Below, in pieces: positions 2,724 through 27,033 of a DNA stretch of 64,000 bases. The first letter of the stretch is position 1, and every line of letters begins with the position of its first letter. The notes below the pieces were generated by a model. The model was not told the origin of the DNA and ran no database searches. It saw nothing but the letters and a program-made list of their open reading frames with translations. The position numbers and the translations under genes were made by a program. The DNA is from a virus (lineage: Duplodnaviria; Caudoviricetes), in the IMG/VR virus record IMGVR_UViG_3300044694_000082, positions 32,001-96,000 of that record. One strand, given 5' to 3'.

Positions 2724-5700
2724 TCAGAAGGGCGGGCAGCACAGGTGGTTGCTGCAGAAGTGCTGCTTGACCAGGCTGACCGGCGGTGGCGGGGCAGGCG
2801 GGTAGTCCGAGGCGGGCTCGGGGTCGTCGTAGAGGTAGGAGGCGTCGCTGCCGTAGTCCGGGCAGACCGGCCCGCTGTACGGGGGGAGCGTGCCGTTGCG
2901 CTCGTGGAAGGCGTACTCCGCGGAGAAGCAGGCGGGGACGCCGAGTTCCTCGGCTTCGGTCATGGTGATCGGTTGCTGGGTCATGGTCAGTCCAGGTAGG
3001 GGTGTCGGAGGCTGGGGTGGACGGCGATGGCGTCGGCCAGAGTGACGACGTTGAGTTCCGTCTCGGCACCTTCGATCAGGGCGATCAACTCCGCCCTGGG
3101 CATGCCTCGCTCTTCGAGCTGCTCGATGGTGAACTTCACGATCCAGGCATGCACCTCGGGGGTGAACTCCTCCTTGTCGAGGGACGCGCCAAGCAGGAAG
3201 ATCAGGTGCAGGCGCTCGACGTCATCCAGCTTCGACCCTGCCGGATTGGGGCCGGAGAGGCGGCGCAGCCTGTCGAGGAGGTGGCCGGGGGCGGATGATG
3301 TGATCACGAAGCCTCCCATGCGGCGATCTCCTCGGGGGTGGCGGGGATCGGCTGGTCACCCTCGTACGGCTCCCACGCCAGTTGGAACATGTAGGGCATC
3401 GTCTCGCGGCGGTACGCGGCTAGCCCGAGGGCGTTGCCCGGGGCGAACTTCGGCAGCTGGCCGTAGTTGTCCTCCCGCTCCTCACGGTCGTGGACCTCGC
3501 ACAGCGGGCTGCCAGGCTTCTTGAACTCACCGCAGTAGATCGACCACGGCAGCCCATAGGCGGTCTGGTAGCCACAGATCTGGCCGCCGCGCCACGGTTC
3601 ACGGGGCAGTGTCTTCATGATGCTTCCTATCTAGTGTCGGTGGCCGGTGTTCCGTGGCCTTCGTGATGATGGTCCGTGAAGCACAGGCCGCAGTACGGAC
3701 GGTGGCAGACACGGCAGAACTGGTCGCTGGACTTCTCACAGCCGAAGCAGGCGTCGGACAACTCGGCCACGTAGCTGGCCTTGGTGCGCCAGCGCAGGCG
3801 GCACATGTCGAACGAACAGCGGACCTCGGAGTAGTGAGAGGGCGTCCGGCGGTAGCCGTTGAACGCTGACGCGTTGTAGTTGCGCATGGTCACCACCCAG
3901 AAGGGGCGGTGACTCTGGTTGCGACAGGCGATGCCACTCATGCGTCACCGGTCCGAGGGTGGGAAGCCGCCGGTCTTCAGGTACGTCTCCGCCCACGGGA
4001 TCAGCTGCTCCATCCGCTTGATCGTCACCTTCACGTGGGTCCGGTCGGTGATCTGTCCGGCGACGACCTGGGCCGCTGCACTCAACGCGGCCTGCCGGAC
4101 CCACTGGGGGTAGGCGTCGTGGTTGCGAGACGGGATGTCGCTCACGTCGTTGCTCCTCGTTGGCAGAGACAGGCCTTGTGGATCTCAGCCAGCGCCGCCT
4201 TCCGCTCGTCGTCGGCTTTGACCGGGTCGATGTTGAAGTACTGATTCAGCGCGTTGCCGGTGGACAGGTAACCCCTCTCGGGGTGCCAGAGGGCGTACCC
4301 CTGATCAGCCGCCCAGTCGAGGAACTCGCCGATGACCTGGCCGTCTTCGCTGTGCTCGGCGATCTTGTCGAGTTCGGGAGTCTCCACGTCACCCCTCCTT
4401 CGGGCGTGCGGCGTGAAGTTCGGAGTTCTGCTTCCGGTTGTGTTCGGCGGCCTCGCGGTTGTAGGCCACCTCGTCGAGGTCGGCGAACAGGTCAGCGTCG
4501 TCGAGGGTGTTGAAGGCCTGCGCTGCGTCGCCCAGCCCCGTGATGCTGGTGTTGTCGTGGAAGCGGAGGGCGAAGCTGCGCAGGGTGGCGAGAGCCTTGA
4601 CTTGCTCTTCGAGGGTGGGCTTGGACATGTCAGTTTCCTCCTGGGTTGAGGGGCTCGGCGTGTTCCAGATAGGCCAGCAGGGAGTCCAGCTCAGCCACGG
4701 TCGGCGTGAAGAACGTGGTCTTGTGGATCGTCCGGGCTCGCCGGAATGCGTCTGTGAGGGTGAACCGCCTGCGCTTGTAGTCCGCGGGGAGTGCCGGTTG
4801 GCCGTTGCGTACGGTCAGTGTGGCGGCGTCGGTGTTGCTCATGATGAAGGGGTAGCGGGTGCTGACCTTGAAGTCGTTGAAGAAGGGCGTGGCCTCCTGC
4901 CCCTCTTGGAGGCTGGCCAGCTTAGCCGCGTCCTCGGCCGACACGACGTGGAACCACACCAGGTGCGTCGTCCCCTTCTCACGGCGAGCCGAGACGACAC
5001 GCGAGGTGTCCAGCACGCTGCGGTAGGTGACAAAGCCCGAACCGGCCGGGAGGTCTGCTGCGTAGCGGCTCAGAACCTCCCATCTCTTGATCAACTCGGG
5101 GTCCTTCAGCCGCAGGAACTTGTAGATGTACGGCCAGGCGAGCCGGGCCATGTCACTTCTCCTTCTTCGGGTCGACATAGAGGGTCGCCGTCGAGCGCTC
5201 GACGGGGTATACCATACTGGTGAGGAGCTGCTCGTACTGGTCGAGCATCTCGTTGCGTTCCGCCTCCTGCTCGGCCTTGTCCAAGACCTCGTCACCGCAG
5301 CGGTAGCCGACCCTGACGAGGTGCAGATCCTTGTCCCAGCTGCATCGGTGACCCCCGAACGCGATGTCCTTGCGGGAGACCCACGGCTTGAACCCCGCAG
5401 TGGTCAGTGTCCGGCCGATGGTAGTGGCGGGGGTGAAGGTGCCGTGCGGCCTGGTCGGGCGGTCGCTGGGCATGTCACTTCTCCTGTTCAACGGTGATGA
5501 CGTAGCCACTGGGGACGGTGCGCCACTCGCCGACGGTGCGCCATCCGGCGTCCGCCAGTAGCTCTCCAGCCTGCTTGACAGCGTCATCGTGATCGCCGGT
5601 GCGTACGTCCACGGTGGTGGTGGCGTAGAAGTACTCCCACTCGTCAGCGTTGGTGGCGTTGGTGTCGAGGACGACGACGTCGCACACATCGGTGGCAACG

Positions 5701-20849: not shown

Positions 20850-21308
20850 TGTTCCGACCTGTTCCGACCCCCGGAACAGGCCACGGCCAGCGAAGGTAAC
20901 GAACCGATAACGCGTTACCGTTTCGTGATGTTCAAGGTCACGGTTAGGTCACGGCCAGGGAGCGGGGCTCGACCTGGCAGGGAGCGGTGAGGGGGTGGTG
21001 TTCCGAGGGTGTTCCGACCCTGTTCCGGGTCTGTTCCGAGGGGGTCGGAACAGTGTTTTCCCAGGTCAGTGGTGCTTTGTTCCGAGTGTTCCGAGTGTTC
21101 CGAGTAGGAATACAAGTCTTCTAACGCGAGAGGGGTATGTAACGGATGTATATAGGTCACAGATACGTAACGCACACGTACGTATATAAGGGAACCTTCG
21201 AAATACCCGGAACACTCGGAAACCTCGGAACACTTGCGGTCTGACCTGCGAGGATGCTGTTCCGACCCCTCAGAACACGGGTCGGAACACCCCGGAACAC
21301 TCGGAACA
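20850..21308. repeat. iteron-like array (17x TGTTCCG/CGGAACA) forming a large imperfect inverted repeat; putative replication origin
   Basis: Arms ~20999-21105 and ~21205-21308 around an AT-richer spacer with two TATATA; located at a local strand switch. Confidence 0.7.
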
Positions 21309-21357
21309 GCGGGCCGGAAGCTGGCCGCGTCAACCCGGGTTGTCCTACCGTCCGGAC

Positions 21358-23984: not shown

Positions 23985-24470
23985 TCAGGTGGTGGCGCAG
24001 TCCGCGCACCATTTGTCACCACTCGTGTGTCGCGCGCATGCGTAGCAGTGTGTGTCCGCCACGCATCCCTCCACCGTGCACGGACCGTCATCGGGTGTGC
24101 TGGCCTGGTCGTCTGCTTCGGCCGCGATGGTGTCGCAGTCGCATCCCTCCCCGTTCAGGTGGCCGCACGGCAGGTTGAGAGACCAGGCCGCGCCGATACA
24201 GGGAATGGAGTACATGACATCTCCGGGCGGAGGTGCCAGCTCGGCCAACCGCACACGCACGGTGTGCGTGGTCGCGCACTCGGCGTCATCGGGGTCATCC
24301 ATGAACTCGACCAAGTACGCCCCGCAGCACCGCCACACGAGACGTACGCGCCCGTACAGGCCGGTTTCGGGAACGTGGACCGGACGGCCAGGGTCGGCCC
24401 ACGCAGGACCGTCCAGCGCACCGAGGGGCGCGCCATCGGTGTCACACTGATGAATGCTGTAACTGCCCAT
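23985..24470 (-). CDS. Cys-rich hypothetical protein
   Basis: MGSYSIHQC.. after AAGGGAG RBS. Confidence 0.55.
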   Translation of the reverse strand: MGSYSIHQCDTDGAPLGALDGPAWADPGRPVHVPETGLYGRVRLVWRCCGAYLVEFMDDPDDAECATTHTVRVRLAELAPPPGDVMYSIPCIGAAWSLNLPCGHLNGEGCDCDTIAAEADDQASTPDDGPCTVEGCVADTHCYACARHTSGDKWCADCATT

Positions 24471-24568
24471 GTGTGTCTCCCTTACTGAGTAGGCCAGGAC
24501 CGGGCGGCCTGACGCAACGCACGTGCCCGCAGGGGGCCGTGCGCTGCGACCACTGCCCGGGGGCCGGG

Positions 24569-25126
24569 TCACTTGCTGGCCTTGCCGTTGCCCTGACGGG
24601 CCAGACGCGCGGCCATCCGACGCTGAGCCGTGGCACAGGCCCGGTAGCGACGCTGAGCAGCCTTGGTGCGCTTGGCAGGCTCACGCTGCACAGCCTCATG
24701 GTCGAAACGCTCCCGACCCAGGTTCCCGGACATCGTGTTGGAAACCGGCTTGTCGCCCTTGCGTTCACGCGGTCCGGTGATCTTGGTAGCGTCCATGGCG
24801 CGGCCACGGACCAGGACCGGACCCCGACCGTGACCGGTCGTCACCACCGGGTCGGCAACGCCACCCATGGGCAGCGGCTCTTGCCCAGCGCGGATCTTGG
24901 CACCCATGATCTCTCGGCGGAGCATGGCGTCACGGGGGTCACCGACGCGGGCCCCCTCGTCCGTGAGCGGAACCTGAGGGCCCTCCCCCAGGTCAATCGG
25001 CACCTTGTGCGCGGCCACGAAACCCTTGCCAGTCAGCTTGACCTTGGGTGCGCGGCACTCCGGGCACGACCCGTCAGGGTTCGGCTTGCGCTTCAGCTTG
25101 CCAGTGATCTTGCAGTTCATGTTCAT
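24569..25126 (-). CDS. basic protein with zinc ribbon and C-terminal Arg-rich helix (candidate RNA-binding antiterminator)
   Basis: CPECR..H N-terminus; KRTKAAQRRYRACATAQRRMAARLAR; RBS GAGGGAG. Confidence 0.6.
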   Translation of the reverse strand: MNMNCKITGKLKRKPNPDGSCPECRAPKVKLTGKGFVAAHKVPIDLGEGPQVPLTDEGARVGDPRDAMLRREIMGAKIRAGQEPLPMGGVADPVVTTGHGRGPVLVRGRAMDATKITGPRERKGDKPVSNTMSGNLGRERFDHEAVQREPAKRTKAAQRRYRACATAQRRMAARLARQGNGKASK

Positions 25127-25149
25127 GATCGTTTCTCCCTCATTTTCCA

Positions 25150-25669
25150 TTGACGGGTCGGGGCGGGGGTTGACGCACTCCGGCCGAAACCGGGGGTTGA
25201 CACACTCCGCCCCGACGCACTGTCTTGCGACCCGTTCGCTAAGCGTCCGGGCCTTGCCCCAGGGAACGGCTTGCTAGGCCGCACCCCGGAGAAACGTTGG
25301 CGTATCCCTGGACACACTCCCGCGTAGCATGCGCACGACTCCCGTCGCTGAACGCTTAGCCCTCACGCATCTCACAGGTACCGACGCACTCCGAAAAACC
25401 GGGGGTCGGGCCGCTCGACCGTGGGCAGGGGGTCCCGAGCACAGGACGCACCTGTGCTTACAAGGGATCTTGACTCACTGTTCAGTTAACAATGGGCACG
25501 ACGTGCCCGCGCATGTCCCGACCAAGGGACGTTCTGTCGACGCACTCACCCTCCGGGGAGGGCGGGGTCAACCGCCGTCGGTAAAGCTGGGGGTGACACG
25601 TGGTCACCATGGGAACCGGTACAGGACCGGCACCCGTGGCAACCCCGGTAACCGGGGCGCCCCGTAGGG
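25150..25669 (-). ncRNA. putative structured leader / ncRNA with repeated GUG(C/U/A)GUC motifs and boxA-like element
   Basis: No credible CDS; many hairpins, 8 motif copies, UUCG loop readable on the minus strand. Confidence 0.55.
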
Positions 25670-26098
25670 CTAGGCAGAGACGCTCTCCCTGTGCGCCCGT
25701 TCCATGGTCATCAGGGTCATGGCCAGGTCACGGAGGGACTGGAGGCCCAAGGCTCCGGCATCGGCCAGCATGCTGGCCAGGGTGTCGGGGGTGGACTCCG
25801 ACAGGCGCACCATGGCGTCGAGTGCCAGCCTGCGCTGGCGTCCCGTCATGCCCTCCGCCCCACCCTGGCCCTTGTCGATCATGGACCAGGCTTGCAGGTA
25901 GGCGCCCGACTCGGCCAGGGTGGGGACCGGGTACGGGTCACGCCCCACGCTGGCCACAGCGTCGATCACACGACCCAGCTTGGTGAAGTGATCATCCTCG
26001 GACTCGCCCGGGGTGGGGATCATCGACGGAGCCTCATTGATCACCATCTTGGGGCGCCTGGCGATCTTGCGCAGCACGGAGCTAGGGCTGGCCTTCAT
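25670..26098 (-). CDS. hypothetical protein
   Basis: 142 aa, GAGAGGA RBS; TAGACT -10-like hexamer upstream (~26174-26179). Confidence 0.6.
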   Translation of the reverse strand: MKASPSSVLRKIARRPKMVINEAPSMIPTPGESEDDHFTKLGRVIDAVASVGRDPYPVPTLAESGAYLQAWSMIDKGQGGAEGMTGRQRRLALDAMVRLSESTPDTLASMLADAGALGLQSLRDLAMTLMTMERAHRESVSA

Positions 26099-27033
26099 GA
26101 TCTTGATCCTCTCGGTCGGTCCTGCGGTGGTGGTGCCCGGGGCCGGTGGCCCCTTCTCTCTTGCTCTGCCCCTAGTCTACACCCTGACGGCCCGATTGGG
26201 GCACGGAAAGGGCACGAGGAGGTCACGGTTAGGTCACGACTGGATGAGCGGGGTGGTGCTCAGATGAGCGCTCACATGATCGATGAGCCGCTCACCTGAG
26301 CGGAGGGGATTAAAGATGCAAATCGGACATCTCTGACAATTACCTCAAAAGCGTACAAATCGGGCGGGTCGGTACCGTGAGAAATATATGGGTCAGTACA
26401 ACCTATAGCGATCCCGACAAATGCCACATATCACCCCGGCCCCCTCCGGTGCTTCCCGCCCACCTCGATCACCACGTGCGGACACCCCGGACACGAGTAC
26501 AGCCGCTGCGTGCCGATCCACCGCCAGCCCAGCCACCACAGCTCCTTGTAGCCCCCAGGACCGGGCTCGGGCAGCAGGACACCACACCGTCTGCAGTGAG
26601 GCCCCTCAGGGCCGCTGTGGCCGCTCATGGCCGCCAGGGTAGAGGATGCCGTCCGGGTCCCGCCGTCGGACGGCCGCTCCAGGGTCACCGGCGCCCGACC
26701 CTCCAACAGATCCACCGACACCGGTACATGGCGAGAGCTACGTGAGGCGCGTGCTGCGCAGTCACGCACGGGACGCCTCTGTCCAGCAGGTTACCGCGAG
26801 CATCGTCTGCACACCGTAGAATTCCTGCCCGCGGCGGCTACCGGAACAGCCGCCGTCCCGCCTTCCGCCCGGCTCCGTGCTCTGGTCGCCGGGCGGTCGT
26901 GCGTTTGCGGCCGGGCAACCCCCACGCTTACGGCGGTCCAGCGGCCGTCATGCCTGCCGGGCCCCACGCTTACGGCGGCGCGAGCCCGTCGCATACGGCG
27001 GCTCCTACGGTATTGACGGATCGGGTTATCGCC

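Follow-up and report, generated by a model that had tools for sequence, protein, structure and literature searches.

Among the closest described counterparts of the locus reported here are signals that modify RNA polymerase from the nascent transcript. The rRNA (rrn) leader signal has the order boxB-boxA-boxC, and its rrnTAC comprises NusA, NusB, NusE, NusG, SuhB and S4. BoxA is both necessary and sufficient for the recruitment of Nus factors, and the N protein of phage lambda, which has an Arg-rich motif, binds beside boxA (PMC10250234, PMC2724277). BoxC has been described as a specific NusA site in M. tuberculosis (PMC2724277), and its general role has been called unclear, even in E. coli (PMC10250234, PMC2724277).

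The locus considered here, a gap between two genes of an uncultured actinobacterial phage, resembles the rrn leader signal in that a diverged box on the presumed transcript strand is followed by a GU-rich boxC core, stands ahead of a putative long transcription unit and is present as the exact element in two relatives. It departs from this signal by belonging to a phage and by lying inside a 0.5-kb, phage-specific folded RNA; besides, the boxC core occurs eight times, the 5' half of boxA is not retained in the window (the whole 64,000-nt stretch of DNA that was analysed) and no leader-trailer partner is evident. With the nutL/nutR sites of lambda, made of boxA and a boxB hairpin, and with their N protein, the locus shares a host-type box and extra RNA elements beside the gene of a protein that is small and strongly basic and has an Arg-rich helix, and its order of promoter, small gene, RNA site and long operon resembles that of lambda pR-cro-nutR, the promoter being a candidate here. 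Unlike the lambda system, the window displays neither a single boxB hairpin nor a conserved small hairpin flanking the box; it has eight GU-rich repeats in linear form, and another lineage has as many as six small hairpins; the RNA is about ten times the size of a nut site, and the protein combines a CCCH zinc ribbon with an Arg-rich helix that is C-terminal.

Other folded RNAs offer parallels too. The HK022 put RNA and the Bacillus EAR RNA, of ~70-120 nt, act in cis to make polymerase resistant to termination, do not require boxA and have no reiterated motif. The likeness lies in a folded nascent RNA proposed to modify its own polymerase, but the gap RNA has no sequence or Rfam similarity to put or EAR. 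The CsrB and RsmZ sponges bind CsrA through GGA motifs in hairpin loops; the gap RNA similarly carries many copies of a short motif on a folded RNA, but this motif (RGUGYGUC) mostly occupies the segments that separate helices, and the RNA continues into a gene. Finally, the leaders of Streptomyces phages such as Nanodon, Coruscant and Yosif use the same host-derived element at the head of a co-directional block, although they are short and simple (promoter, one hairpin, box) and lack both the two-hairpin domain (R1, Table 1) and the zinc-ribbon protein.

The gene-free gap and its relatives

The gap belongs to a phage genome of 104,344 bp from IMG/VR that is rated complete and of which the window covers bases 32001-96000. 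Its gene content includes a tyrosine integrase, ThyX, a portal whose closest match is that of a Streptomyces phage (46% identity), a ClpP-type protease and an HK97-type capsid. Third-position G+C reveals leftward (minus-strand) genes from window position 1 to ~41 kb and rightward structural genes from 43.5 kb, in agreement with the original prediction that the RNA stands ahead of a long block of leftward genes. Intrinsic-terminator-like sites on the gene strand number only three in the next 20 kb, and Rho-dependent terminator sites are not predictable.

Two minus-strand genes flank the gap (Table 1). The non-coding stretch had been placed at 25150-25669; its gene-free nature was upheld, since no ORF of the gap shows the high third-position G+C typical of the genes of this genome, but its lower edge had to be moved. 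As the downstream gene most likely begins at the ATG at 25126, after GAGGGAG, the true non-coding span is 25127-25669. A 112-aa plus-strand ORF within it has no Pfam or PHROG match, and the equivalent gap is left empty or nearly so by gene callers in relatives. The product of the 142-aa upstream gene has no family match in Pfam or PHROG either.

No sigma-70-type promoter was identified inside the gap. A dip to 48% G+C is seen at 26300-26399. A 19-bp box (AGGTCACGGTTAGGTCACG, plus strand) occurs in identical form at 26220-26238 and 20935-20953, upstream of two leftward gene blocks, and its 26.2-kb copy is positioned ~40 nt upstream of a -10-like TAGACT (26174-26179). This TAGACT could drive the 142-aa gene and the RNA.

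Table 1. Features of the gap and of its surroundings, ordered along the minus strand (positions in the window)
Feature	Position	Strand	Remarks
Candidate promoter region	26174-26238	-	-10-like TAGACT 26174-26179; 19-bp box CGTGACCUAACCGTGACCT 26220-26238; read from sequence
142-aa gene, upstream of RNA, co-directional	25670-26098	-	homologue directly upstream in 5/11 relatives
Gene-free gap, proposed structured leader RNA	25127-25669	-	543 nt; collinear gaps in 11/11 relatives
5' hairpin CCCCGG-UUA-CCGGGG	25643-25657	-	folds; kept in L003, L012
Hairpin CCGGU-CCUGU-ACCGG	25616-25630	-	L003: CCGACC-GUU-GGUCGG, same place
Hairpin GGUGAC-CACGU-GUCACC	25592-25608	-	GGUGAYC...GAUCAC-type hairpin at equivalent place in most relatives
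Motif copy 1 (GUGAGUGCGUCG)	25539-25546	-	12-mer invariant in the four closest sequences
Hairpin GUCCC-UUGGUC-GGGAC	25515-25530	-	between motif copy 1 and box
Hairpin GGGCAC-GUC-GUGCCC	25494-25508	-	between motif copy 1 and box
BoxA-boxC-like element UUGUUAACUGAACAGUG	25476-25492	-	14/17 vs canonical actinobacterial leader 17-mer
Motif copy 2, boxC core of box element	25472-25479	-	same offset in 27/51 host leaders
Hairpin GCACAGG-UGCGU-CCUGUGC	25439-25457	-	folds; motif copy 3 in loop; partly kept in L002
Motif copy 3	25445-25452	-	loop of hairpin 25439-25457
Motif copy 4 (CGGAGUGCGUC)	25383-25390	-	L002: GGGAGUGUGCC, same place
Motif copy 5 (GGGAGUGUGUC)	25311-25318	-	kept in L002, L008, L012
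Two-hairpin domain (R1)	25226-25305	-	single-stranded ACGCCAACGUU 25293-25303; H1; H2
Hairpin H1, loop CUAGCAA	25257-25291	-	part of two-hairpin domain
Hairpin H2, enclosing CGC-UUA-GCG	25229-25253	-	part of two-hairpin domain
Terminal domain (R2)	25149-25226	-	outer stem 25207-25216/25157-25166; motif copies 6-8; apical hairpin
Motif copies 6, 7, 8	25214-25221, 25199-25206, 25172-25179	-	terminal domain
Apical hairpin CCGGU-UUCG-GCCGG	25180-25193	-	within terminal domain
RBS and start codon of downstream gene	25124-25141	-	GAGGGAG 25135-25141; ATG 25124-25126; read from sequence
Gene of 185-aa basic protein	24569-25126	-	pI 10.8; CCCH zinc ribbon; Arg-rich helix

The protein encoded downstream has ~28 metagenomic homologues, around which 11 distinct relative loci were retrieved (12 with the window). 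A gap of 0.5-1 kb without genes is found directly upstream of the homologue in all 11 relatives and is collinear with that of the window, with sequence blocks and hairpins in common, so that the protein gene adjoins the RNA in 12 of 12 loci. A check of positions 24000-27000 against Rfam, with E up to 10, gave no match within 25127-25669, and the RNA family is absent from Rfam.

Wider searches yielded little. No cultured phage resembles the locus at the DNA level; IMG/VR scans with either flanking protein or with the family alignment returned no relatives, and the family alignment gave no match in a genome scan and two loci with one and the same sequence in a metagenome scan. A conserved 15-mer of the RNA had 96 matches in IMG/VR, of which 80 were screened as loci and one passed covariance model R1; this sole locus is a false positive, as it lies inside a 1,429-aa gene. 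Two 30-bit matches of R1 among 101 Streptomycetaceae genomes were likewise discarded as false positives, with no protein or box nearby. Two relatives (L008 and L015) contain a second, partial 5' module, made of a CCAGGCGA-type hairpin and UGUGAUCUUGGA, 700-800 nt upstream of the homologous gene, where it precedes an additional small ORF. In some relatives, the RNA region thus seems to have its 5' part duplicated.

Conserved helices on the gene strand

Comparison of these loci leaves us highly confident that the minus strand of the gap specifies a structured RNA that is conserved. Twelve independent folds of the 80-nt domain at 25226-25305, whose stems differ widely in sequence, all yield the same two hairpins, and model R1 matches all 12 loci with E <= 2e-7. 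After realignment of the 12 sequences to R1, both partners change in 18 of 22 pairs, 86% of the cells are paired versus 37-51% with partners slid, and none of 500 shuffles reaches any of five measures; as the covariation alignments were model-fitted and comprise related sequences, the slid and shuffled controls here and below are indicative and provide no formal probabilities. For the terminal domain, model R2 matches eight loci and independent folds agree. Its outer stem displays double changes at 9 of 10 pairs, with 83% of the cells paired versus 42-54% when slid (eight sequences). Covariation among homologues, on which the original prediction had staked the RNA, is therefore present in two domains.

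The orientation of the fold is indicated by the non-canonical pairs. Since G-U outnumbers A-C (29:4 in the two-hairpin domain and 7:2 in the terminal domain), the fold belongs to the gene strand (minus). Taken alone, this test is compatible with single-stranded DNA of the gene strand too. Together, covariation and G-U excess support the proposal of a single-stranded, RNA-level element with conserved helices on the minus strand.

Most of the stems initially put forward proved sound. The hairpins at 25439-57, 25494-508, 25549-62, 25592-608 and 25643-57 all fold, as does the stem 25157-66/25207-16, which is backed by covariation. A long-range stem between 25238-46 and 25352-60 was, however, rejected even though the two segments are a perfect 9-mer complement: 25238-46 is the core of H2, which covaries in 12 sequences, and the complementarity is missing in the closest relative (L002). 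Hairpins of the 5' half show compensatory changes in the two to three closest relatives, a depth too low for statistics. Such a change distinguishes the 25616-25630 hairpin from its counterpart in L003 (judged by eye), and the hairpins 25515-25530 and 25494-25508 are kept in L002 and L008 with changes from U-A to C-G and from G-C to U-G (depth of three sequences).

Thermodynamic z-scores (-2.1 for the minus strand, -2.6 for the plus strand) are not informative, and the box and motifs are predicted to be only a little more accessible than average, with no clear excess over background. RNAalifold applied to plain MAFFT alignments recovered only part of the structure, which calls for structure-aware realignment. 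A terminator-like hairpin, GGUCG-AGCGGCC-CGACC followed by CCCGGUUUUU, is also present on the minus strand inside the RNA (25404-25420, ~55 nt downstream of the box); it is absent from L002.

The rRNA-leader-type box, the reiterated motif and the adjacent protein

Judged from its sequence, the central block of the gap descended from the boxA-boxC element of actinobacterial 16S rRNA leaders, of which it is a diverged copy. The canonical leader 17-mer (TTGAGAACTCAAYAGTG) is found in at least 120 genomes, nearly all of Actinomycetota; in the four loci with rRNA detected, it precedes the 16S rRNA by 155-230 nt and has the same orientation. The box of the window has three differences from the host type over 17 positions; no other site, in the 64 kb (0.05 expected) or genome-wide, comes within three mismatches of the 17-mer. 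At the homologous place, L004 and L015 harbor TTGAGAACTCAACAGTG, which is the exact canonical 17-mer, and the block of L003 and L011 is one change away from it. The window and L002 share TTGTTAACTGAACAGTG, L008 and L012 share TTGTTAACTCCAYAGTG, and only a degenerate, interrupted box can be recognized by eye in L005, L007, L010 and L013. The exact variant of the window is absent from 401 sampled Actinomycetes genomes and from cultured phages, and outside the box block the phage RNAs have no similarity to host leaders.

Because the flanks of host leaders (...GUUCY-UUGAGAAC...) align with the E. coli rrn boxA (UGCUCUUUA), the phage block probably corresponds to the 3' half of boxA plus the start of boxC; the window has not retained the 5' half GUUCY. 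The GU-rich AGUGAGUC overlaps the box at its 3' end, at the offset observed in 27 of 51 host leaders, in which RGUGHGYC occupies +10 to +19 at the 3' edge of the 17-mer (31 sense matches versus 1 antisense). Two further records stand apart: an actinobacterial locus (L126) has two leader 17-mers on one strand, 125 nt apart (5534-5550 and 5659-5675), and a cyanobacterial MAG (Phormidesmis; L030, 6709-6725) has the 17-mer once, as the only clearly non-actinobacterial record among the matches listed.

The box is also found in other leaders. A 43-nt probe around the L004 box matched 141 cultured phage records, including 130 of Streptomyces phages, and the matched sites mostly lie in unannotated DNA close to one end of the genome. 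In phage Nanodon (L241, NC_031078, 49271-50082), which has consensus-like promoters, TTGACA-17-TAGAGT is followed by a small hairpin, the box and, ~125 nt after the box, the first gene of a co-directional block, an order that, as read from the letters, is the textbook layout of an rrn or nut leader. The Streptomyces phages with the host-type box contain no R1 domain. Our literature search, of incomplete coverage, found no published description of boxA in actinophages. A bacterial case was noticed in a chromosome of Kitasatospora sp. (L027 5845-5861, the same as L137), in which the exact rrn-type 17-mer belongs to the leader of a non-rRNA operon: TTGACC-17-TATGTT and a hairpin precede it, small membrane-protein genes follow, and a GntR-like regulator is oriented divergently. 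This locus looks like an integrative or conjugative element.

The GU-rich core is not restricted to the box. All eight sites of the motif GACDCACY listed in the original prediction (Table 1) were confirmed, all on the plus strand, and four of them read GGAGUG on the minus strand. They fall within 370 bp and account for 8 of the 10 plus-strand matches in the 104-kb genome; the 64-kb window contains 18 on both strands, a total at or below chance, of which eight are in the gap. Their spacing is irregular (27, 15, 97, 72, 62, 27 and 67). The direct repeat also predicted there is real and spans 22 nt (25164-25185/25191-25212, 91%). Motif positions are kept in the closest relatives, and copies 7 and 8 oppose each other across a large internal loop, a layout kept in eight sequences even where the motif differs. 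Since the motif equals the GU-rich boxC core of host leaders, the eight repeats of the window amount to a reiterated boxC core. A pairing of the leader-trailer type was dropped, as sites complementary to the motif occur at chance frequency on the downstream transcript.

On the same scaffold, other lineages reiterate a different element, either GUGCAG (4-5 copies) or GUGUGGYG (3-4 copies), on the sense strand only, and lineage C has two to six small GGGCR-N4-YGCCC hairpins in place of the linear motif. The change of the reiterated element from lineage to lineage speaks for a partner encoded by the phage and against a conserved factor of the host. The 185-aa protein encoded next to the RNA contains 39 Arg and Lys residues, invariant C5, C21, C24 and H40 and conserved Arg-rich blocks; its AF2 model displays an Arg-rich C-terminal helix (155-179) at pLDDT ~90, with residues 94-138 disordered. 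Searches gave no Pfam or PHROG match (and no N-family signature in either), no PDB match in sequence or fold, no informative language-model neighbour and no homologue in cultured phages. The hairpin-type repeat class tracks a distinct C-terminal module of the protein (4/4 versus 7/7), a weak link that is only suggestive because it follows phylogeny.

Readings of the locus and their biological meaning

The best-supported mechanism for the locus, to which we give moderate credence, is a nut-like role in antitermination with the adjacent protein as partner. The gap would be transcribed leftward as a ~0.5-kb structured leader RNA and function as a nut-like (N-utilisation-like) site of enlarged size; the 104-kb genome has no second site of this kind, and this one precedes a run of co-directional genes. 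Its central single-stranded block would load host Nus factors on the polymerase, with boxA receiving NusB/NusE and the boxC region NusA, while the covarying helices would display around the box the eight copies of RGUGYGUC, the GU-rich boxC core. These repeats may bind a lineage-specific partner, for which the downstream zinc-ribbon/Arg-rich protein, then a counterpart of lambda N, is the likeliest candidate. Once assembled, the complex of RNA and protein would travel with the polymerase and enable it to read through terminators of the long leftward block. The antitermination leader that the original prediction had offered as one option is specifically backed by the rrn-leader-type boxA-boxC, which that prediction had not mentioned, whereas transcription of the gap, its binding by Nus factors and protein, and its effect on termination are steps that we infer.

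Two other explanations are each unlikely in our view and could in part be true together with an antitermination role. According to the first, the gap is an autoregulatory 5' UTR, in which the protein binds the repeats of the leader from which it is expressed and thereby represses or activates its translation or the stability of its mRNA, with no role in processivity. The adjacency of RNA and gene in 12 of 12 loci, the terminal stem that ends 16 nt before the ribosome-binding site and the co-occurrence of repeat class and C-terminal module all fit such a control, but a multi-domain RNA of 0.5 kb with a host rRNA-leader signal far exceeds the needs of known translational operators, and the distance from the box to the start codon, ~365 nt, is almost constant. 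Autoregulation is compatible with antitermination, and both could co-exist.

The second explanation, of similarly low probability, makes of the RNA a decoy or a stand-alone non-coding RNA. It would titrate a factor of the rRNA leader (NusA, NusB/E or a processing enzyme) and shut down host rRNA synthesis, or serve as a scaffold unrelated to the transcription of phage genes. Eight copies of the boxC core on a stable scaffold would suit a sponge, and the terminator-like hairpin and U-run at 25404-25420 could release a shorter RNA that bears the box. However, this internal hairpin is missing in L002 and the window has no terminator between the RNA and the next gene; the reiterated element varies among related phages, whereas host factors are conserved, and cultured Streptomyces phages use the box in a plain leader position. 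Titration does not exclude antitermination by the same RNA.

That the gap acts as double-stranded DNA, as an operator or iteron array (origin, partition site or transcriptional control region), is hardly credible: eight repeats of the same orientation in 370 bp, the 22-bp direct repeat and a basic adjacent protein with a zinc ribbon would accord with it, but compensatory changes with G-U tolerated on one strand only are not needed by dsDNA sites and favor RNA over the operators that had been named as the alternative, the irregular spacing and a repeat region of 58-71% G+C without AT-rich dip do not agree with an iteron origin, and a far better origin candidate exists at 20850-21310. There, TGTTCCGA iterons in 11- and 9-bp phase are mirrored in inverted orientation around a core of 45% G+C (21100-21199), an arrangement that makes this segment a likely replication origin.

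Going back to the antitermination role of the gap RNA, the locus represents a concrete and testable candidate for a lambda-N/nut-like system in actinobacterial phages. Our search of the literature, with incomplete coverage, retrieved no published description of phage-encoded processive antitermination in these phages. The candidate combines an RNA family absent from Rfam, an embedded host rRNA-leader signal and an invariably linked protein of RNA-binding type that belongs to no known family. More tentatively, and as a possibility that we hold for doubtful at this stage, RNA and protein may form a new large ribonucleoprotein, in which a 0.5-kb scaffold bears many lineage-specific elements beside one host-type boxA-boxC. 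Such a 'super-nut' would reprogram or capture the host rRNA transcription machinery in Actinobacteria, with a specificity swapped between lineages by co-evolution of the repeat and the C-terminal module.

The host boxA-boxC element is unannotated in the early leaders of ~130 cultured Streptomyces phage records. On this basis, mimicry of the rRNA leader may be a general strategy in Streptomyces phages, which may matter more broadly than the present locus, and the cultured phages with the box offer tractable model phages and hosts. In addition, the reiterated boxC-like motif could help to reveal what boxC binds.
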